Positions 189-18,118 of a DNA stretch of 20,074 bases are shown here, piece after piece. The DNA comes from a virus. Lineage: Duplodnaviria > Heunggongvirae > Uroviricota > Caudoviricetes. The stretch lies in IMG/VR virus record IMGVR_UViG_2663763227_000012. One strand, 5' to 3'. The translations under genes were made by a program, and so were the position numbers. The notes below the pieces were generated by a model. That model was not told the origin of the DNA and did no database searches. It saw nothing but the letters and a program-made list of their open reading frames with translations. Position 1 is the stretch's first letter; each line of letters begins with the position of its first letter.

Positions 189-1484
189 TTAATTTTTCAT
201 TGCTTCGTTATGGGGCATGGTTGGGGCAAACTCGCTTAACTGTGTATTTAACAAAGCTACCTGTGCATTATTGTTTTCAGACATCCATTTTCCGTATACC
301 TGAAATACCATTTGCGCATCTGCATGGCCCATCTGGTTTGCTATAAATGCCGGGTTAGCACCAGCTGTCAGCGACCAGCAGGCATAAGTATGTCTCGACT
401 GATATGATTTTCGATGGCGGAGTCCGGCACGTTTTATCGCTGCGTCCCACATCTGCCTTATTGAGTCAACGGTAAAATGGTCACCATAATTTTTTACTCT
501 CGCTGACACTTCAGGTTGAAAAACAAAGGTGCATTTTTGTTTTTCTGTTCTGCCATACTCTCTGAGGTGAACATCAATGATATGCTCTTTGCTCAGTCTC
601 GTTAATGTCATCTGACTCCGGAGAGCGTCGATTGCTGGCTTAATAAGATGAATGACCCGATTGGTTCCCGCCTGTGTTTTTGGTACCGTGAAACGGTCTT
701 TTGCTAAATTTCTCCTGATCATCATTGTTCCATTTTTCAGATCTATGTCCTCCCATCCAAGTGCACACAGCTCACCAGGGCGAACTCCAGTATAAACAGA
801 AACACACCATAAATTTTTTGCTTGCTGATTTCTGCACGCATCGATAAGACGGATAAATTCTTCCCGCGAAAGAGGATCCGGAATGGTTCTTGATTCCTTT
901 AATGGCGAGATCCCCTTAAACGGATTATCTGCCAGGTAACCGTTATCAACACCAAACTGGAACACGGCGTTAAGATTTGTCATGTAATTATTTACAGTTA
1001 CAGCCGATCTCCCTGGTTGTGTAACAATATAGTTACTTTTGGGGATCTGGTATCCAGTCAGTAACTCTTTACGAACCTCCAGTAATTTTTCTTTATTAAT
1101 CGATGAGGCAAGATTTTTTTCACCGATTATGCTCAGGATATTTTTGATGACGGCACGGTATGTGTTGAGTGATGTTTTGGCGACTTCAGTTTCTTTCAGT
1201 GCCAGAAATTTTTCAGCCAGTTCTTTTATGGTTAAATCTTGTCGGGCCTCACCAAATTTTTCCAGATTGCGTGAGGAGGGAAACTGTTTTGCATAGTCGA
1301 AAACACCAGTTTTTATTGCGTAACAAACAGAGGAGCGTAGTTCACCTGCAACGCGCCTGTTTTTTGCTGTGTCAGGAACCCCCAGATTTTCCCTGACTCT
1401 TACGTCTTTATAAACAAACCAGATACGTAATTTCCCTCCATGGTTTTCCACGCCTGTCGGATATTTCATTTCAACTTCTCTCAT
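189..1484 (-). CDS. int: Phage tyrosine integrase (site-specific recombinase)
   Basis: 431-aa ORF with a C-terminal catalytic region containing R..H..R..H..Y-type residues (LRHRKSYQSRHTYACW). Sits at the prophage edge next to an excisionase-like gene. Confidence 0.9.
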   Translation of the reverse strand: MREVEMKYPTGVENHGGKLRIWFVYKDVRVRENLGVPDTAKNRRVAGELRSSVCYAIKTGVFDYAKQFPSSRNLEKFGEARQDLTIKELAEKFLALKETEVAKTSLNTYRAVIKNILSIIGEKNLASSINKEKLLEVRKELLTGYQIPKSNYIVTQPGRSAVTVNNYMTNLNAVFQFGVDNGYLADNPFKGISPLKESRTIPDPLSREEFIRLIDACRNQQAKNLWCVSVYTGVRPGELCALGWEDIDLKNGTMMIRRNLAKDRFTVPKTQAGTNRVIHLIKPAIDALRSQMTLTRLSKEHIIDVHLREYGRTEKQKCTFVFQPEVSARVKNYGDHFTVDSIRQMWDAAIKRAGLRHRKSYQSRHTYACWSLTAGANPAFIANQMGHADAQMVFQVYGKWMSENNNAQVALLNTQLSEFAPTMPHNEAMKN

Positions 1485-1503: not shown

Positions 1504-1755
1504 TCAAGTAAGATGACGTCTTGGTCTCGCTGATGCCTGGCGCTCAATCCAGCGATCAATTTCTTCCAGGTTGTAAAAGCATGGACTGTTATCCCATGGC
1601 ATACCGTCATGAGCGACATGCTTATATTCCCTTCCTTCCATAAACGATTTTTCCCGGGCCTTTTTTAACGTACCTTTTTTTATTCCTTTCAGCGCAATTA
1701 ACTGCTCTTCGGATACCCATTTGCCGGGAGAGACAATCATGATTACTTCGCTCAT
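1504..1755 (-). CDS. xis: Excisionase-like small DNA-binding protein
   Basis: 83-aa basic ORF immediately upstream of int on the same strand, the usual lambdoid xis position. Start codon uncertain (alternative internal Met). Confidence 0.55.
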   Translation of the reverse strand: MSEVIMIVSPGKWVSEEQLIALKGIKKGTLKKAREKSFMEGREYKHVAHDGMPWDNSPCFYNLEEIDRWIERQASARPRRHLT

Positions 1756-1827: not shown

Positions 1828-4299
1828 TTAAGAATCAGCCTGACTCGGGATCAGTTTTTGCCAGATAACTGAAACGTATTTTGCCTGGTAACGGGCGTCA
1901 TCAAGTGCATTATGGCGCTCACCTTCGAATGGAATAGCCGTTCTGGCATCGAAGTCTATGGCTTTCCCCAGCTCAACGATTGTGCGTACATCGCGATCGT
2001 TGTAGTAACGCCACGGGCAGGGGATCCCCTGCCGTTCGTATGAACGGCGCAAAATCGTGTTGTCGAAGTTGGCTCCATTTCCCCAAACCTGAACAAAAAA
2101 TTCACCGGAGTTTTCGTCGATAAATTCTCGCAATTGTAACAGTGCATCATCTAACGGGATTTCATCGGTCATAATGGCAGATTGCGCTTCGCGTGATTGC
2201 TTAAGCCACCATTTAATGGTGTCCCGATCAATGACTCCGCCAGCAGTTTCCAGATCGATAGTCTTACTAAATTCCGGTCCCATATCTCCGGTTTGCGGAT
2301 CGAAAAATATTGCACCTATTGAGATGATCGGGGCATCAGGATTTTTTCCCATGGTTTCAAGGTCGATCATTAGATGGTCACACGTCCTGCTGGTGGATGT
2401 GATTTCGTGATGACCGTTCACCTTAATTGGGTGATCTGCCGTCTCGCCAGTTTCATTATCGCTATTGTGATGCTGATTGCCGCCAGTGTTCTCCTTGTGT
2501 GGATGTTCAGCGCCTTCCATTTCCTCCGGATCATCTTCCTGAACTTCAACCTGATACTCTTCATCGAATGTTTCTTGGTATGTTGCGTCGCCCATCACCG
2601 CGCCACAATCAGGGCAGTTGCCGCCGCCGGTCTGACCGCAGGCGGTGCAGACTTTTTCCACTTCCTGTTGCGCTACTGGTTCAGGCTGTTTCGTTTCTGG
2701 CTCGTTTTGTAACGCATTTGGACTGTTTTGTTCCGCTTTTTGGTAGTTCCGTTCCGATTCATGCTGGTTCTGGTTCACAGAATCGCGGGTCTGGAGCCCC
2801 TTAACCCATTTCGGATCATTCGGGTCACTAATCCCTTCAACAAATTCACCACGTGATGCAGCAAGCAACTTATCGGCGTCAGGCTGGCTGATATTGGCTG
2901 CCTGCATAATTTTGTTTACTTCGTCAGCGGTAACTTTTATCGGCTCTGGTTGTTCTGAATCTTCAGCGGTATCTACATTTTGCGGTAAGCCCGTGTATGT
3001 GCCATTTTTTCGGGCAAAATATTCTTCTTTTGTGATTTCAGTGGCGCCAGCAGCCAGTGCCTTATCCAGACCAGAGAGTTTGTTTGCGCGACCGTATTTT
3101 TCTCCGTCCTTATCTGCGAAGAGGAAATAGAACGGCCCCTCACGCTCTACAGATGGTTCAGCTTCCGGCGCGGTTTCATTTTTTGGGATATCAGATACCT
3201 CAGTTTCCACTGCATCAGTTTGTGTTTCTGATGACTGGAGAACATCAACAGTGCCCAGGTCTGTTTCTTCATTCTCAAACACGCCCTTTGTCGTCAGGTA
3301 TTCGCAGATATATTTGTTCAGTGCTACGGGATCTTTGTGAATGTCGATCGGACGCTCACGGACAAGGCCAAAAATAGTTTGGCGGTCGTAGCGAAGGGCA
3401 TCAGGCTGTTTGCGCATTGATGCCGAGATACGCTTCCAGTCTTCGCGGTCGTTGTCGATAACTTCTTTTTTTGCCCAGCGATGGATGCTGCCGTCAATGT
3501 TTCCGGCATCCACATCACTAGGCCAGAGAGCGTAGGCCAGTTCGTCATCCAGTGTTTTCCATGTCTGCTTGTATTCGCGATGAATGGCAGCAATGACCGG
3601 GCTGATTTTTCCTGTTGAATTTTCAGTGTACTGTTGATTGGCTCTGGCGCGGGCGAGATCAACAACAGACGTGTATTTTCCGGTTTCCTTGCGTTCACCT
3701 TCGCGACGTTTTTTCCAGATGCGCATCTCTGCCTGAATTTCGGGCCATTTGGCACCAGGCTTACATTTATGCTTAACCCACCCGATGGCATGCAGCTTAA
3801 GCTCCGGATACATGGCGTTAACTTCTGGCATTTTCATCAACGCTTCAACGATATGTCCGTCGAATGTTGCCATGTCTTCCTGCAACAATTCCTGCGCGCT
3901 AATCACCATATCAACGGTGATGTTTTCACATGTGTCGAACTTAACCATGACAGCGTTCTGTACTTCAGGGGCCAGCTTGTCAAAAGTGACGTTCATCGGA
4001 TCGGATTCAGTCTCAACCGGGACAAAAGAAGCAGACTCCTCATCCCAGCGGTTTTCCTGCATATATTCAGCATCCCATGAATCGAGGGCAGGGCGGGGTA
4101 TGCCAGGTTTATCCTCGCAGACAATAAATTTATAAGCGCAGTCCTGAGCAGCCGGATAATGTTCCAGGAATTGCCAGTGAAATTTTGCTCGAGCACGGCG
4201 TTCGTCGCCAGCTTCAATGGCTGTGGCTACAGCCACAGCGCCTTCTTCCCTTGTTGCCAGTTCGTCAGGAATAGCGGCGCAAATAAAGACTTTACTCAT
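1828..4299 (-). CDS. Large prophage protein with C-terminal DnaQ-like DEDDh 3'-5' exonuclease domain and a CxxC-x7-CxxC zinc ribbon
   Basis: ORF 1828..4335 (track starts at a TTG); I prefer the ATG at 4299 (MSKVFICAAIPDE...), which has a GAGG about 10 nt upstream. Exo I (MIDLETMG), Exo II (VWGNGANFD) and Exo III (HNALDDARY) motifs lie in the last ~185 aa (nt ~1831-2390). Zinc ribbon VCTACGQTGGGNCPDCG at nt ~2599-2655. N-terminus resembles the K-12 Qin ydfE fragment from memory. Confidence 0.75.
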   Translation of the reverse strand: MSKVFICAAIPDELATREEGAVAVATAIEAGDERRARAKFHWQFLEHYPAAQDCAYKFIVCEDKPGIPRPALDSWDAEYMQENRWDEESASFVPVETESDPMNVTFDKLAPEVQNAVMVKFDTCENITVDMVISAQELLQEDMATFDGHIVEALMKMPEVNAMYPELKLHAIGWVKHKCKPGAKWPEIQAEMRIWKKRREGERKETGKYTSVVDLARARANQQYTENSTGKISPVIAAIHREYKQTWKTLDDELAYALWPSDVDAGNIDGSIHRWAKKEVIDNDREDWKRISASMRKQPDALRYDRQTIFGLVRERPIDIHKDPVALNKYICEYLTTKGVFENEETDLGTVDVLQSSETQTDAVETEVSDIPKNETAPEAEPSVEREGPFYFLFADKDGEKYGRANKLSGLDKALAAGATEITKEEYFARKNGTYTGLPQNVDTAEDSEQPEPIKVTADEVNKIMQAANISQPDADKLLAASRGEFVEGISDPNDPKWVKGLQTRDSVNQNQHESERNYQKAEQNSPNALQNEPETKQPEPVAQQEVEKVCTACGQTGGGNCPDCGAVMGDATYQETFDEEYQVEVQEDDPEEMEGAEHPHKENTGGNQHHNSDNETGETADHPIKVNGHHEITSTSRTCDHLMIDLETMGKNPDAPIISIGAIFFDPQTGDMGPEFSKTIDLETAGGVIDRDTIKWWLKQSREAQSAIMTDEIPLDDALLQLREFIDENSGEFFVQVWGNGANFDNTILRRSYERQGIPCPWRYYNDRDVRTIVELGKAIDFDARTAIPFEGERHNALDDARYQAKYVSVIWQKLIPSQADS

Positions 4300-4391
4300 T
4301 TGTTTTAACCTCATGACAGATTTAAGGATGAACAAATCCCTGCCATTGTTGGCATATAAGAATGAAACCGGATATTTATTACGGAACTGTT

Positions 4392-4583
4392 TTAAAGACC
4401 TGCCGGGATTTCGATATTATCCTGGTGAATAACTTTATCGACCGGGTAACAGTTACCGGGAATTTTCTGTTCGGTTGCTGCAGTCATACACTCCTGCATT
4501 GTCCTGTGAACACTGACTGCAATATCAACTGGCTCTCCGGAAACAAGAAAAACTGTCAGAACAAGCACAAATGCTGAATTCAT
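4392..4583 (-). CDS. ydfD: YdfD-like small secreted/membrane lysis protein
   Basis: 63 aa from internal Met (MNSAFVLVLTVFLVSGEPVD...), hydrophobic N-terminus. Overlaps the dicB stop by 4 nt; matches Qin YdfD as recalled. Confidence 0.8.
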   Translation of the reverse strand: MNSAFVLVLTVFLVSGEPVDIAVSVHRTMQECMTAATEQKIPGNCYPVDKVIHQDNIEIPAGL

Positions 4584-4768
4584 TGTGCACATCCTTTTGG
4601 CATCAGACGTAAACGAGCCAGCATTGAAACAATGCATATTTTATTTAATAGCTCCCGTTCTTGTTTTCTCTTGTTAATGGCATCTTCAGTAAATACTGGG
4701 TTACTGATAGTGACACCAATTTCAAAACAACCTTCAGACGTATTAACGTTTGGTAATAACGTTTTCAT
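4580..4768 (-). CDS. dicB: Cell-division inhibitor DicB
   Basis: 62 aa from internal Met of the 97-aa ORF (MKTLLPNVNTSEGCFEIGVTISNPVFTEDAINKRKQERELLNKICIVSMLARLRLMPKGCAQ). Sequence and position match DicB. Confidence 0.85.
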   Translation of the reverse strand: MKTLLPNVNTSEGCFEIGVTISNPVFTEDAINKRKQERELLNKICIVSMLARLRLMPKGCAQ

Positions 4769-4937: not shown

Positions 4938-4995
4938 AAAAAGGGCGGCAGAGCAGTCACGGAGTAAAACTGATACCGCCAAACGTCACCAGAAA
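4938..4995 (-). ncRNA. dicF: DicF small regulatory RNA (ftsZ-targeting sRNA)
   Basis: Reverse complement of 4938-4995 reads TTTCTGGTGACGTTTGGCGGTATCAGTTTTACTCCGTGACTGCTCTGCCGCCCTTTTT, the DicF sequence with its terminal GC stem and U-tail. Lies between ydfC and dicB as in Qin. Confidence 0.85.
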
Positions 4996-8248: not shown

Positions 8249-8671
8249 GTGGCAAAAGTTTTTACACAAGAAGAGCGGGAAAAAATTAAATGGCAGGTGG
8301 TGGAACTCGTGCGCCAGAGCGGCCGTGAGACGTTACGGCAACTGGAAGCTAAAACAGGTGCGACTAGATATCTGATGAGCGTTCTTGCCAGAGAGCTGGT
8401 AGCCAGTGGCGATGTATACAACTCCGGCTACGGGTTATTCCCCTCTGAACAGGCGCGTAAGGACTGGCAAAACGCCCGCAAAAAACTCTCGAGGGCAAAG
8501 GTGAAGAAACCTGCTGTGGTTGATCCGGACCTTATCTGGTCATCACCTGACGGAGAAATACGTCGCTACGACAGTCGCCTAAACATAATCTGTCGCGAGT
8601 GCCGGAAGAGCGAAGTTATGCAGCGCATACTGGCTTTCTATCAGGGTAATTTTCAGGACGTGGCGCAGTGA
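8249..8671 (+). CDS. Hypothetical prophage protein, possible HTH
   Basis: 140-aa ORF with GTG start at 8249 preceded by GGGGG. Segment ETLRQLEAKTGATRYLMSVLARELV looks HTH-like. Stop overlaps the next gene's GTG start (GTGA at 8668-8671). Confidence 0.5.
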   Translation: MAKVFTQEEREKIKWQVVELVRQSGRETLRQLEAKTGATRYLMSVLARELVASGDVYNSGYGLFPSEQARKDWQNARKKLSRAKVKKPAVVDPDLIWSSPDGEIRRYDSRLNIICRECRKSEVMQRILAFYQGNFQDVAQ

Positions 8672-9024
8672 GTGCACCGGCAACCATTCTTGATATGTGC
8701 TGTGGCAGCCGCATGTTCTGGTTCGATAAGTCTGACGAACGGGCGATATTCAGCGATATCAGAAAAGAAGGATACACATTACGCAATGGGAGACGCTTGA
8801 TTATCAGCCCTGACATTATCGCAGATTTTCGTGCATTATCATTTGCAGACGCATCTTTTTCGATGGTTGTATTAGACCCTCCGCATCTTGAGAGTGTTGG
8901 TGATAACGCCTGGATGGGAAAGAAATATGGACGGCTGAATAAAGATGCCTGGCGTGATGATTCGCGACAGAGATTTAAAGAAGCCTTTCGGGTGTTGAGG
9001 CCGCACGGCGTTCTGATTTTTTAA
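8668..9024 (+). CDS. N6-adenine DNA methyltransferase-like protein, short and probably truncated
   Basis: 118 aa with SAM motif I-like DMCCGS and motif IV DPPH (VVLDPPHL), plus a RVLRPHGVLIF strand typical of class I MTases. Too short for a complete MTase fold; the frame stays open 30 codons past the TAA at 9022-9024. Confidence 0.55.
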   Translation: MSAPATILDMCCGSRMFWFDKSDERAIFSDIRKEGYTLRNGRRLIISPDIIADFRALSFADASFSMVVLDPPHLESVGDNAWMGKKYGRLNKDAWRDDSRQRFKEAFRVLRPHGVLIF

Positions 9025-10137
9025 TGGAATGAAACGCAAATACCGGTAAGCCAGATTCTGGCACTGACAGACAGAAAACCTGTTATCTGTCAACGAACAG
9101 GGAAAAAACGATAAAACCCACTGGATTATTTTTATGAAAGAGGCATCCAGTGAGTAGATTCGTAAGGCTACAGATACGTATATCTGAATAATTAAATTCA
9201 GTTCTGTAAATAAAATTTAATCCTTAACCGGATGGATTTCTGCACCCTCAGAACATCAGGAGGCCGCCCGAAAGGGCGGTAGTGAAATGCGAAAGTTCAA
9301 AATTATTATTGAAACGGGAATAGCTGGTGGAGATTTTGAGGATGTATTCGAAGTGGACGATGACGCAACACCTGAGGAAATTCATGACGGAGCATAAGAA
9401 ATTTTCTTTAACTACTGCAATTACTCATACCACGAAATAAAAGACGATGAGGAAGAACAAAGTGGCTGATTTTTGTTCAGCTAAATATAACATCAGTTTT
9501 GAAGAGCGGGATGAACTATTAATGGACTATGGTGAGTTACGCGGTGGAAGTGCTGCTGATGTCGAATCCTAGCGTGATGACTATGAAGCGGGAAAAACTC
9601 CGGTCGAAGCATATTGTGATGAGTGGGGCGATGAATGAGCGAGATTAATTATCAGGAAGGGCATGAAACGGCGGGGCAAGCAAAACCAGTGGCATGGCGA
9701 TATCGCTACGTGAAAAAAGGCGTTACGGACTTTCAGGGGAAGTAGTGGTCTGGTGACTGGAAATATGTACCGAAAAAAGAGGATTGTAACGACAGGCCGA
9801 ACTATCAAATTCAGGCCTTATTCACTGCCTCACCAGTCCCAGTTACATCAGAAGAACTGGTTAAAGCTGTGCACTTTTATGAACAACTAAAACGCGAAAA
9901 TCCACCAACATCCGGCAACTAGATTAATGGATTAACTATGTCGGTTAAACGACCAGCCAACTGAAAAAGCGGAAACCTGATTACAGGTTGCCAGATAAGG
10001 CAATGAGCTACCTGGCGCGGAACGGACTGATAAGTATGGGGAATGTTTTACGATGAACCTTTAGACTAAAGAGTTTGTAACGCTATGTAAGTGATTTTTT
10101 CTGGTTTAGATATTTATATGTCCGGCCAAATTGAGGT
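9025..10137. other. AT-rich decayed accessory segment with several gene-like frames each broken by an in-frame stop
   Basis: 9288-9470 (MRKFKIIIETGIAGGDFEDVFEVDDDATPEEIHDGA-TAA-EIFFNYCNYSYHEIKDDEEEQSG), 9490-9637 (in-frame TAG at 9569-9571) and 9635-9921 (MSEINYQEGHETAGQAKPVAWRYRYVKKGVTDFQGK-TAG-WSGDWKYVPKKEDC...). No ORF over 60 aa on the plus strand. Confidence 0.4.
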
Positions 10138-10356: not shown

Positions 10357-10690
10357 ATACAGCGAACTCCATTGGTTTAGTTGGATATTTACTGTGCTGG
10401 ACAAAAACGGTTTGCGGGGAAATCTTAGTTAAGTAGAATGACTGCGGGTGCTTGAGGCTATCTGCCTCGGGCATGGACACCAACGGCAGATAGAGAAAAG
10501 CCCCAGTTAACATTACGCGTCCTGCAAGACGCTTAACATTAATCTGAGGCCAATTTCATGCTAGACACATGTAGGTTAGCCTCTTACGTGCCGAAAGGCA
10601 CGGAGAAGCAGGCTATTGTTAACACCAAGCTGTAATGTCCCCTTTGAACCATTCTAAAATGTCCCCAGACAATTCTCTGGGGGATTTTTC

Positions 10691-12004
10691 ATGATCAAAG
10701 AGACTGTTACGATGAGTCATAAGGAACTCCACCGACTTCAGATTATTCAGGAACAAGCTGCGGCACGCATTGGCATTTCTATTCGGCAGGTTAAACGTCT
10801 GGTGCAACGGTATAGAAATGAAGGGCCTTCTGGTCTGGTTTCCCACCGACGTGGAAAGCGTCCTAATAATTCCTTTTCTACTGAATTCAGAGCAACAGTA
10901 ATTTCACTCCTCAAAGGCCGTTACGCTGATTTTGGACCTACGTTTGCGTGCGAAAAATTGCGCGAGATACACGGTTTATCTTTATCCGTTGAAACTCTCA
11001 GAAAGTGGATGATAGAAGAGGGGTTATGGCGTGAACGCCGTCGTAAAATTGCCCGTATATATCAACGCCGCATGCGACGACCATCTTACGGTGAACTGAT
11101 CCAGATTGATGGCTCACCTCATGACTGGTTTGAAAATCGAGGCCCCAGATGTACACTGATCGTTTTCATTGATGATGCCACCAGTGCGTTGATGGCGTTG
11201 CGTTTTGTGCCTGCTGAAACAACCCGGGCTTACATGGAAACCCTCCGGGGTTACCTTAATGATCATGGCGTACCGCTCGCTCTCTACTCTGATAGACACA
11301 GTATATTCAGGGTAAATAACCCAGAGCGGGAAGGTGAGCTGACCCAGTTCACTCGTGCGATAAAGACACTGGGCATCGAGCCAATCCATGCCAACAGCCC
11401 GCAGGCAAAAGGGCGGGTAGAGCGCGCCAATCAGACACTACAGGACAGGCTGGTCAAAGAAATGCGGCTTCAGAATATCAGTGATATTGAAACAGCAAAT
11501 GCATGGTTGCCGACCTTTATTGAAGCCTATAACAACCGGTTCGCTACGTCGCCTCGTACTACTGATAATGCTCATCTTGATGTGCACCATTCTGAAGAGG
11601 AACTGGGTTATATCTTCAGCCTACAGGCGAAGCGCGTTCTGTCTAAAAATCTCACTTTCCAGTACAAAAGCAGTGCGTTTCAGGTACGCAGTGAGGGCCG
11701 GGGATATCGACTTAGGCATTCGGTTGTTACTGTATGCGAGAACTTTGACGGTGAAATTAACGTTCTGTATGACGGGAAAGCGCTGGGCTGGGAAAAGTAT
11801 GTTGATGGCCCGGAGCCTATACCACTGGATGATGAAAAGAGTGTCCATGAACGAGTGGATAATGCCCGTATTGATTTACGCTCAAAATACTATGTTAAAC
11901 CTAAAGCTGACCATCCCTGGCTTACGCGCCGAACGCAAAGTCATCAGCAAGTTAAGCCCCCGAAGTTACCTAAAAAGAAGCCTGATCCCGATAAAAAAGA
12001 TTGA
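10691..12004 (+). CDS. DDE transposase/integrase-core (rve) protein with N-terminal HTH, IS481/ISNCY-like
   Basis: 437-aa ORF: N-terminal HTH (IGISIRQVKRLVQRY), then an rve-type catalytic core (IQIDGSPHDW...TLIVFIDDATS...GRVERANQTLQD) and a basic C-terminal tail. Element boundaries not resolved. Confidence 0.8.
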   Translation: MIKETVTMSHKELHRLQIIQEQAAARIGISIRQVKRLVQRYRNEGPSGLVSHRRGKRPNNSFSTEFRATVISLLKGRYADFGPTFACEKLREIHGLSLSVETLRKWMIEEGLWRERRRKIARIYQRRMRRPSYGELIQIDGSPHDWFENRGPRCTLIVFIDDATSALMALRFVPAETTRAYMETLRGYLNDHGVPLALYSDRHSIFRVNNPEREGELTQFTRAIKTLGIEPIHANSPQAKGRVERANQTLQDRLVKEMRLQNISDIETANAWLPTFIEAYNNRFATSPRTTDNAHLDVHHSEEELGYIFSLQAKRVLSKNLTFQYKSSAFQVRSEGRGYRLRHSVVTVCENFDGEINVLYDGKALGWEKYVDGPEPIPLDDEKSVHERVDNARIDLRSKYYVKPKADHPWLTRRTQSHQQVKPPKLPKKKPDPDKKD

Positions 12005-17322: not shown

Positions 17323-17622
17323 AAAAATTCCTTAATACTTATAACTTGGCGCACTATACACACGTTCCTGAAGAAAGCTATAGTTTTTTGATGGGGTTGA
17401 AGATGGCTGGATGTCTAAAATAAACATTGCTTCATATGTTCAACTATGCGTTAATGATTGCGTCGGTTTGAAGAACAGACGATATACGAAGTAGTTTACT
17501 AAAGCAGTTCTCATTTCAGGTGTTATTCACTTATTCCTTCTTTGAGTCTCTCCAATTAAGTACGAAGTCGTTTCTGTTATGCAAACCATTTATGCCGAAA
17601 GGCTCAAGTTAAGGAATGTAGA

Positions 17623-17838
17623 ATGTCAAATAAAATGACTGGTTTAGTAAAATGGTTTAACGCTGATAAAGGTTTCGGCTTTATTTCTCCTGTTGATGGT
17701 AGTAAAGATGTGTTTGTGCATTTTTCTGCGATTCAGAATGATAATTATCGAACCTTATTTGAAGGTCAAAAGGTTACCTTCTCTATAGAGAGTGGTGCTA
17801 AAGGTCCTGCAGCAGCAAATGTCATCATTACTGATTAA
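17623..17838 (+). CDS. cspB: Cold-shock protein CspB
   Basis: 71-aa ORF ([71 protein letters not shown]) with RNP1/RNP2 motifs and a ~300-nt AT-rich upstream region typical of csp genes. Confidence 0.9.
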
Positions 17839-18118
17839 AATTCATCGCTCGTCTGTATACGATAACGAAGAAGGCTGATGCCTGAGTAGAGATACGGACA
17901 GAGTAGTGAATATTGGATCTCTTTAATAAAAAGTAAGGAGGTCCAATACATGAAACAATGGCTAGCATATTTGGCAAAATCTTAATCAGGAAAAGTATGC
18001 TAACCATTGTGGTGAAGTGCAGGTTTGCTGCATGAATAGTTTTACAGCAGAAGCTAACTGCTGGCATGGCAAAACAAAGTGCGTAAGTGGATGACTCCCA
18101 CAAAAAGCACCACAATCT

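Follow-up and report, generated by a model that had tools for sequence, protein, structure and literature searches.

The ydfE-type protein of lambdoid prophages: a scaffold related to RecE with a predicted DexA-like DEDDh exonuclease domain

The ydfE-type gene of the caudoviral DNA analysed here (20,074 nucleotides, IMG/VR record IMGVR_UViG_2663763227_000012; hereafter the window) encodes a protein built of three folded N-terminal domains, a conserved motif, a zinc ribbon, a linker and a C-terminal DEDDh domain (Table 1). By sequence and profile comparison its entire non-catalytic part, including the zinc ribbon, is homologous to RecE. The C-terminal domain is predicted to belong to the 3'-5' class of exonucleases, whereas RecE and lambda Exo are of opposite polarity. 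Since a RecE-homologous non-catalytic part is joined to a different nuclease, the protein is best regarded as a paralogue of RecE in which the nuclease has been exchanged and not as an unrelated large ORF. E. coli genomes carry the gene very frequently.

Table 1. Position of the ydfE-type gene, its neighbours and the parts of its product in the window.
Feature	Position	Strand	Support or remark
Excisionase gene xis, directly downstream	1504..1755	(-)	annotated excisionase in Tritos and PhiR42_1; PF06806
Full-length ydfE-type gene	1828..4299	(-)	823 aa + stop, ATG at 4299
ydfD (4392-4583) and dicB (4580-4768), directly upstream, same operon	4392..4768	(-)	
N-terminal folded domain, aa 1-205, alpha/beta + helical	3685..4299	(-)	AlphaFold2 pLDDT >90
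Helical domain, aa 245-345, common to RecE	3265..3567	(-)	pLDDT ~96
Small beta-beta-alpha-beta-alpha domain, aa 385-435	2995..3147	(-)	pLDDT 90-97
Region aa 262-627 aligning directly with RecE aa 278-592	2419..3516	(-)	BLASTP E 2e-61
Conserved motif GEFVEGISDPNDPKW, aa 484-498	2806..2850	(-)	confirmed by translation
CxxC-x7-CxxC zinc ribbon CTACGQTGGGNCPDC (C551/C554/C562/C565)	2605..2649	(-)	confirmed by translation
Acidic disordered linker, aa 571-636 (~65 aa)	2392..2589	(-)	pLDDT <50
DEDDh 3'-5' exonuclease domain, aa 640-820 (predicted)	1840..2382	(-)	Pfam PF16473, fold, residue alignment

The mechanical ORF extends on the (-) strand from 1828 to 4335 and counts 835 residues from a TTG at 4335. 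The ATG at 4299 is the likely start of the protein; a GAGG Shine-Dalgarno sequence lies 9 nt 5' of it, and phrog_2082 (823 positions) covers residues 13-834 of the mechanical ORF. An identical protein is present in Qin-site prophages, beside rspB. Within the early-left operon, where xis marks the end of the slot, the gene fills the interval from xis to ydfD/dicB with no space for a further gene, in agreement with the first-pass annotation, which had placed a single protein of ~823 residues there. That annotation had also stated that the protein has no annealase partner, and the wider survey supports this: no RecT, Bet, Exo, Gam, Rad52-like or Sak protein was found in 94 loci with the DEDDh form (the window and 93 related ones), and no annealase is annotated across the 46 kb of the isolated phage Tritos (99% identical). 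A recT-like frame hidden inside the ORF was ruled out, as tblastn gave no match and the ORFs in alternative frames are short.

The C-terminal domain matches the Rv2179c-like Pfam family PF16473 over profile positions 2-177 of 177; its score of 226.5 bits, where the cut-off is 27, is far beyond chance (E 2.4e-67). The three DEDDh motifs noticed earlier in this part of the protein, MIDLET (2353-2370), WGNGANFD (2062-2085) and HNALDDA (1894-1914), are confirmed by translation. They harbor an intact set of catalytic residues: D646 and E648 (Exo I, DxE), D746 (Exo II), and H796 and D801 (Exo III, Hx4D). When T4 DexA and the YeP1 homologue are aligned with the protein, all five positions stay unchanged, and a sequence search of the PDB led to T4 DexA (8KEL). 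In the AlphaFold2 model (pLDDT mostly 80-92) the domain adopts an RNase H-like alpha/beta exonuclease fold, the best Foldseek matches of which are RNase T and DexA (E ~3e-7, TM 0.6-0.67 on target). No Pfam or BLAST match connects the protein with residues 600-866 of RecE, which form the PD-(D/E)XK nuclease of PF12684 type. Both profile and fold comparison thus speak for a DEDDh domain instead of the RecE-type fold, consistent with the polarity class proposed at first. We infer the polarity, the substrate (DNA or RNA) and the timing of expression of the ydfE-type protein. PADLOC returned a single match, to a generic CRISPR-associated DEDDh model (E 1.7e-5), and this gave no assignment to a defence system. 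In e14-like phages the corresponding genomic position is taken by stand-alone homologues of the domain (55-59% identity) that lack the scaffold, so the nuclease can work without the platform.

The N-terminal region of ~550 residues had been described as devoid of recognisable motifs. This description does not hold, as BLASTP and hhalign demonstrate its relationship to the non-catalytic part of RecE. The direct BLASTP alignment (Table 1) reaches ~80% identity across its last ~150 residues and starts at residue 262, within the region of the helical domain. The preceding part, residues 1-260, is by profile comparison remotely homologous to the N-domain of RecE (PF06630; hhalign 97.7%, E 1.4e-12), where part of the score may stem from a motif shared at the domain end. 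Only positions 271-600 of the NCBIfam model PRK09709 align to the protein, and the score against the RecE equivalog NF007259 (281.5 bits) stays below the cut-off of 1269. The domain of residues 1-205 spans Pfam YdfE_N and YdfE_C, and fold comparison with PDB and BFVD yielded nothing informative for it. The folded scaffold domains are under strong purifying selection: dN/dS is 0.07-0.09 for residues 1-205, 0.13-0.17 for residues 245-345 and 0.03-0.07 for residues 385-435, that is 0.03-0.17 overall in contrast to 0.4-0.8 in the linkers. The motif GEFVEGISDPNDPKW ends a set of moderately confident helices and precedes a poorly predicted stretch (residues 502-546). It is conserved in RecE and occurs in 18 of the 48 full-length family representatives, with all main types of C-terminal module, and it may be a protein-interaction peptide. 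The zinc ribbon, correctly recognised before, is retained in RecE as ACNACGQTGGDNCPDC and is found in only 6 of the 48 representatives.

Comparison within the family reveals how the protein is assembled. Two N-terminal types are combined with at least four C-terminal modules, namely the RecE PD-(D/E)XK nuclease, the DEDDh domain, a probable Rad52-like annealase and a module of unknown kind; among the 48 full-length representatives these account for 11, 7, 16 and 5 proteins, respectively. Each of the three main cargos is found with both N-terminal types. In each of 80 loci the RecE-type nuclease is followed by recT, whereas neither recT nor bet was found in the 94 DEDDh loci. The exchange point can be located by comparison with one relative (L100), which carries the same scaffold (68-88% identity) followed by the RecE nuclease and recT. 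DNA homology to this relative ends inside the linker, at residue ~622 (window position 2433), and this is the cassette-exchange point. The scaffold is a portable platform of enterobacterial lambdoid prophages.

The cargo of ~170 residues is probably a Rad52-like annealase. It is labelled as probable because the assignment is based on sub-threshold matches to Pfam PF04098 (11 of 13 members) and on the annotation of its stand-alone homologues by depositors as RAD52-like annealing proteins. The search of PDB profiles gave nothing relevant for this cargo and NCBIfam gave nothing; in an hhalign comparison with Sak of the lactococcal phage ul36 the signature helix alone was aligned (probability 0.3%). 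The gene order in a Citrobacter prophage is KilR, GamL, the scaffold with Rad52-like fusion, Gp157, Exc and Int. The idea that gp06 of Pectobacterium phage ZF40 is a DEDDh protein acting as partner to the Rad52-like fusion was ruled out, there being no similarity; its sequence appears to resemble Gp157, and its positional counterpart in the Citrobacter prophage matches PF05565 (Sipho_Gp157). Of the two functions suggested earlier for the N-terminal region, annealing and targeting, the former is unlikely on these comparisons, because many relatives have, fused to this scaffold, a domain of its own that is probably a Rad52-like annealase. Targeting or a platform function is the better fit.

Of 5426 complete E. 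coli genomes, 3537 (~65%) carry at least 80% of the gene, often in multiple copies, as in EHEC strains. The K-12 strain keeps an N-terminal fragment only, as had been supposed: its ydfE corresponds to residues 1-256 (99% identity) and is cut by IS2. The literature found on ydfE consists of gene lists, and nothing further was found on the ydfE-type protein. A predicted nuclease present in this share of E. coli genomes is a notable gap in the description of a well-studied organism, whatever its role may be (recombination, exclusion or other). Many copies are named '3'-5' exoribonuclease' by NCBI, and several phage records say 'exodeoxyribonuclease VIII'. The latter label is misleading, as the score is far below the RecE equivalog cut-off, the nuclease is another one and recT is lacking. 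It is misapplied both to DEDDh proteins and to probable-annealase proteins in which no nuclease domain is recognisable.

The reading that we favour, though tentatively and at somewhat short of even chances, is that the RecE-family scaffold carries a DexA-like 3'-5' exonuclease which serves an early lytic function without a phage annealase. The cargo would be a DEDDh 3'-5' exonuclease of the T4 DexA/Rv2179c type that replaces the PD-(D/E)XK 5'-3' nuclease of RecE, and the gene would be transcribed with the early-left operon in lytic growth. The scaffold would deliver the exonuclease to the same target that the RecE N-region recognises, which may be the ends of DNA or else a host factor present at intermediates of recombination or replication, and there the domain would strip nucleotides from 3' ends by two-metal hydrolysis. 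Any strand pairing would then have to be provided by the host (RecA pathways), or the role may be limited to end trimming or degradation. A 3'-5' exonuclease destroys the 3' tails needed by annealases and RecA, therefore a pro-recombination role is not obvious. The scaffold-free homologues of e14-like phages also count against this reading.

The N-terminal two-thirds of RecE have remained for decades without an assigned function, yet they alter recombineering outcomes and make linear-linear recombination better (PMC11611040). At least three DNA-processing cargos on one scaffold, together with the selection acting on three folded domains and on the short motif, argue for a shared binding target. 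It is possible, with a confidence slightly lower than for the lytic role itself, that the N-terminal ~600 residues of RecE are a portable targeting platform with interchangeable cargos and one common target (a DNA end or a host factor). In that case the DEDDh version, carried by about two-thirds of complete E. coli genomes, would perform an annealase-independent 3'-end processing undescribed for temperate phages. The shared target can now be sought with any member of the family.

The main rival is a role in prophage exclusion or defence, in which the lysogen would be protected because the nuclease breaks down the modified (5hmC-type) DNA of T-even phages that superinfect it. It draws on EcD, a stand-alone E. 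coli homologue of DexA from the proposed 'HREX' defence that was reported to digest T4 DNA and to protect against T4 (Kang et al. 2025, PMC12153337). Among relatives of the C-terminal domain that have been studied by experiment, EcD is the closest (38% identity over 183 residues, E 2e-37); the domain itself belongs to the DexA family. Its locus was found through the forward primer, the reverse primer matching a random locus only. EcD has 189 residues and is free of the scaffold, and its genomic surroundings differ. The abundance of the gene in E. coli, often in several copies per genome, also suits a protective function. However, the gene lies at the end of a repressor-controlled early-left operon, and a simple consensus search detected no sigma-70-like promoter on its strand; the gene should therefore be silent in the lysogen. 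At least one of the residues involved in DexA disagrees as well: W152 and D169 were proposed to be readers of 5hmC, with the Trp stacking on it (PMC12153337), and the position of W152, a Trp in EcD as well, is occupied by Tyr766 in the ydfE-type protein, while D169 belongs to a DexA-specific insertion without a counterpart in it (the alignment is uncertain there). The tetramer-forming D90 of DexA, which is A78 in EcD, aligns with Asp718, but Ala719 adjoins and a shift by one residue changes the call. In addition, the scaffold is common to recombination proteins and the PADLOC match is generic. Taken together, we consider an exclusion role unlikely.

The name of the PF16473 family, taken from the exoribonuclease Rv2179c, the NCBI names of many copies, and RNase T and oligoribonucleases among the best fold matches would all agree with a 3'-5' exoribonuclease of Rv2179c or RNase T type that trims or degrades host or phage RNAs in lytic growth. 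RNase T cuts DNA too, so the fold match does not separate the substrates; DNA is the substrate of EcD and also of DexA, the nearest of the characterised phage homologues (PMC12153337), and the other cargos of the scaffold are DNA enzymes (the RecE nuclease and the probable annealase). These points make an RNA substrate more doubtful still than exclusion. The fold matches include further DEDDh enzymes, the dinucleotide-degrading Orn/REXO2 and the CBASS-associated Cap18, and together with the early-operon position they raise the thought of an anti-defence enzyme which early in infection breaks down a nucleic acid of host immunity, for example retron msDNA or oligonucleotide signals of cyclic or linear form. 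This appears improbable, since the protein has no specific similarity to known anti-defence proteins, its closest sequence relatives are DNA exonucleases of DexA type, and the scaffold in common with RecE favours a context of DNA ends. A decaying, non-functional chimera left by prophage recombination could be imagined from the high mosaicity of the family and from truncated or frameshifted copies (K-12 ydfE, L012, L015, SKA5). This last explanation is already contradicted by the dN/dS values and by conservation, and is the least credible by far: conservation extends to the catalytic residues, purifying selection on the folded domains is strong, intact copies exist in thousands of genomes, and the gene is intact and of full length in isolated plaque-forming phages such as Tritos, HannyBb and PhiR42_1.

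One of the nearest known systems is RecE, the exodeoxyribonuclease VIII that the Rac prophage encodes together with its partner RecT. Both genes occupy the operon slot from kil/dicB to xis; the N-domains are homologous by profile comparison, and the central region, the conserved motif, the zinc ribbon and the acidic linker are alike by BLASTP. The ydfE-type gene differs from RecE in encoding a DEDDh 3'-5' domain in place of the C-terminal PD-(D/E)XK 5'-3' nuclease and in having no adjacent recT. With T4 DexA (exonuclease A, PDB 8KEL/8KEN) the C-terminal domain shares the DEDDh family and the fold at ~28-31% identity, the catalytic residues aligning throughout; DexA is a stand-alone protein of 227 residues with extra loops, whereas in the ydfE-type protein a scaffold of 640 residues precedes the domain. 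The fusions of the scaffold with the probable Rad52-like cargo, such as ZF40 gp07 and proteins of Klebsiella, Salmonella and Citrobacter prophages (the latter three bearing the name 'exodeoxyribonuclease VIII'), have in common with it the YdfE_N/YdfE_C scaffold, the middle region and the kil-to-xis slot. They carry the cargo with the Rad52-type signature instead of the DEDDh domain, and their loci hold GamL and Gp157 genes, both of which are absent from the window. Lambda Exo/Bet and other two-component recombinases agree with the ydfE-type gene in genomic position and early-operon timing. Such recombinases combine a 5'-3' exonuclease with an SSAP; here the nuclease is predicted to be of the opposite, 3'-5' polarity class, and it is accompanied neither by an SSAP gene nor by Gam.

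The window comprises the integrase-to-lysis half of a lambdoid prophage of the Qin/mEp460 type, and three phage isolates, PhiR42_1, HannyBb and Tritos, are 99% identical to it over the region. The exact 823-aa protein is found in E. coli contigs, in a prophage adjoining rspB/rspA, which is the Qin site of K-12. The minus-strand order is dicA-type repressor, ydfA/B/C, DicF RNA, dicB, ydfD, ydfE-type gene, xis and int. The ydfE-type gene lies at the end of the early-left operon, where it wholly occupies the xis-ydfD interval; no promoter of its own was detected. The protein is taken as 823 aa long because GAGG precedes the ATG at 4299 by 9 nt and PHROG 2082 (823 positions) begins at this ATG. 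As a sequence the gene was already known, and it has a PHROG and Pfam families. A megablast comparison with 5426 complete E. coli genomes places at least 80% of it in 3537 of them, with as many as 10 sites in one genome, and some part of it in 4800; partial matches may come from the stretch it has in common with recE. No publication describing what the gene does was found.

Features of the ydfE-type protein (residues, AlphaFold2) and of the window (nucleotides)
Feature	Position	Strand	Remarks
Folded alpha/beta and helical unit	residues 1-205		pLDDT above 90
Helical unit	residues 245-345		pLDDT about 96
Small beta-beta-alpha-beta-alpha unit	residues 385-435		pLDDT 90-97
Two helices ending in motif GEFVEGISDPNDPKW	residues 458-500		moderate pLDDT
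Motif GEFVEGISDPNDPKW	2806-2850 (aa 484-498)		adjoins poorly predicted stretch
Zinc ribbon	residues about 551-565		poorly defined
Disordered acidic linker	residues 571-636		pLDDT below 50
Exonuclease domain	residues 640-820		pLDDT mostly 80-92
Mechanical ORF	1828-4335	-	starts at TTG; 835 aa
DicF RNA	4943-4994	-	between ydfA/B/C and dicB
118-aa ORF	8668-9024	+	C-terminal end matches only last ~20 positions of methyltransferase profile
sok antitoxin RNA	10446-10617	+	Rfam, 104 bits
437-aa ORF, IS-type transposase	10691-12004	+	HTH_28/29/32 and rve_3 integrase-core match; nin-like region, adjoins hok/sok locus
cspA-type thermoregulator 5' UTR	17462-17854	+	full-length; Rfam, 159 bits

Elsewhere in the window, the cspA-type 5' UTR precedes and overlaps a 71-aa ORF that corresponds in position to the CspB-like cold-shock gene of Tritos. 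No plus-strand ORF of at least 55 aa is present in 9025-10080, about 1 kb following the 118-aa ORF, and 8668-10080 may be a segment decayed or rearranged relative to Tritos.

The first-pass annotation regarded the N-terminal region as devoid of a recognisable motif; this has to be revised, as the non-catalytic part is that of RecE. The NCBIfam RecE model covers residues 258-635 of the 835-aa ORF (281 bits versus a cut-off of 1269), and BLASTP aligns K-12 RecE 278-592 with residues 262-627 (E 2e-61). The identity is ~80% from residue 474 on, across the zinc ribbon and acidic tract, and alignment is lost at the start of the RecE nuclease part. The nuclease domain of RecE is formed by residues 564-866, the remainder being described as "of unknown function" (review PMC11611040). 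The first 260 residues belong to the new Pfam families YdfE_N and YdfE_C and have no BLAST similarity to the RecE N-domain (PF06630). Profile-profile comparison of this group with the PF06630 group gives 97.7% probability (E 1.4e-12, 239 columns), a score to which a shared end-of-alignment motif may contribute. No paper was found that describes the ydfE-type protein as a RecE paralogue in which the nuclease has been exchanged, or that reports alternative cargos on the RecE scaffold.

The positions previously annotated for the three DEDDh motifs and the CxxC-x7-CxxC ribbon are correct, and K-12 ydfE is indeed an N-terminal fragment (residues 1-256, 99% identity, then IS2). Residues 642-813 match PF16473, the Rv2179c-like 3'-5' exoribonuclease domain (Pfam, E 2.4e-67). 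T4 DexA (8KEL/8KEN) was matched in the PDB sequence search, and Foldseek with the AlphaFold2 model returned RNase T, DexA, oligoribonucleases, Cap18 and a Cas2-DnaQ domain. The catalytic residues of DexA have their aligned counterparts in D646, E648, D746, H796 and D801; at the sequence level, the DEDDh active site is intact. The AlphaFold2 models (built from 68 aligned sequences for the whole protein and from 57 for residues 1-440) predict the exonuclease domain to be held on a flexible tether. Motif GEFVEGISDPNDPKW recurs in 18 of the 48 full-length representatives of the family regardless of N-domain or cargo, and resembles a short peptide through which a partner might be bound.

Exhaustive HMMER search of 1.84 billion representatives with residues 1-640 matched 253 clusters in all (50% identity level). 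Module seeds, mapped onto the 48 representatives 450 aa or longer, revealed as cargo a ~170-aa domain with motif KKSLTDAxKKALSxLGF (16), a RecE-type PD-(D/E)XK nuclease (PF12684; 11), the DEDDh domain (7), a module ending "...QQLTIAALxGLCANPA..." (phrog_26058, function unknown; 5), an in-frame RecE-RecT fusion (1) and other C-terminal modules (8). The YdfE_N and RecE_N domains are each seen with all three main cargos. The "...QQLTIAALxGLCANPA..." cargo is carried by P0126, P0262, P0265, P0266 and P0268, plus P0133 (classed "other" in the census); it has no Pfam family, phrog_26058 being its sole match. In the fusion protein P0203 (703 aa) the RecE N-region, broken within the zinc ribbon, is joined in frame to RecT, presumably after the nuclease domain was deleted.

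For the ~170-aa domain, a Rad52-like annealase is the probable identity. Rad52_Rad22 is the top Pfam match in 11 of 13 members, all below threshold (best E 0.0012), and phage homologues occurring on their own carry the annotation "RAD52-like annealing protein" or "single strand-annealing protein". A Citrobacter koseri prophage (L207:6001-8364) has the fusion of scaffold and ~170-aa domain in the recombination slot, with KilR/GamL on one side and Gp157/Exc/Int on the other. The assignment found no confirmation in PDB profile, hhalign or NCBIfam tests. In NCBI such fusions are called "exodeoxyribonuclease VIII", with no nuclease domain detectable. Hundreds of enterobacterial prophage proteins with a YdfE-type scaffold are of this kind, including P0129, P0134, P0135, P0154, P0168, ZF40 gp07 (L178:3633-5798) and the C. 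koseri protein, with C-terminal motif KKSLTDAxKKALSxLGFSADV; the naming looks like a systematic mis-annotation.

In 80 of 80 IMG/VR loci recT lies directly downstream of the RecE nuclease domain. The DEDDh loci comprised 80 from IMG/VR (fetched by the zinc-ribbon region of the ydfE-type protein), 9 from species-representative genomes, the window and 4 phage records; a search of the surrounding 7 kb found RecT, lambda Bet, Exo or Gam in none of these loci, and none gave a Rad52-like, Sak or Gp157 match. The earlier claim of a missing annealase partner is borne out: the interval is filled, and the larger ORFs of the window lack a RecT/Erf/Red-beta Pfam match. No annealase is annotated across the 46 kb of Tritos. 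A phage annealase is consistently absent from these DEDDh loci. The related locus L100 has the order dicB, YdfE-type scaffold, RecE nuclease domain, recT; its scaffold is 88%, 79% and 68% identical to that of the window by segment, and the DNA homology runs from 5293 down to 2433, ending at residue ~622 within the acidic linker. This arrangement and homology break indicate that one scaffold bears either of two cassettes, "[RecE nuclease + recT]" or "[DEDDh domain]".

In the e14-like phages SKA5 (L005:4998-5571) and YeP1 (L006:4998-5570), DEDDh homologues of ~190 aa (55-59% identity) stand alone in the equivalent place immediately ahead of xis/int, at the early-operon end after HD-hydrolase, EaE and Ea22 genes, with no annealase annotated nearby; a frameshift splits the SKA5 copy. 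A contig labelled as a Veillonella parvula MAG (JAGZPX010000007.1) contains dicB together with a RecE_N-type DEDDh gene whose C-domain is 100% identical to that of the window, and is almost certainly a mis-binned E. coli prophage contig.

The scaffold is conserved, under selection and common to RecE and the probable annealase fusions. We tentatively propose, at somewhat less than an even chance, that in lytic development it would carry the exonuclease to a target also recognised by the RecE N-region, where the DEDDh domain would take nucleotides off 3' ends. RNA as the substrate appears rather improbable, and degradation of immune signals still more so. That the gene is a dead chimera is hardly credible, being contradicted by selection and by the intact copies in plaque-forming phages.

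Exclusion of the EcD type is unlikely, being weakened by the operon position and by non-conserved recognition residues. EcD, a stand-alone E. coli homologue of DexA, was reported to digest T4 DNA and to protect cells by Kang et al. 2025, who solved the DexA structure (PMC12153337). An EcD-type 189-aa protein, identified via the published forward primer and agreeing in its Ala78 with the description in that paper (PMC12153337), is 38% identical to the C-domain of the ydfE-type protein. On alignment, the proposed 5hmC-reading residues are not clearly kept, so membership of the EcD/DexA-type defence class is not supported: W152 of DexA is replaced by Tyr766 and D169 sits in an insert absent from the ydfE-type protein, while the "tetramer" residue Asp90 aligns with Asp718.
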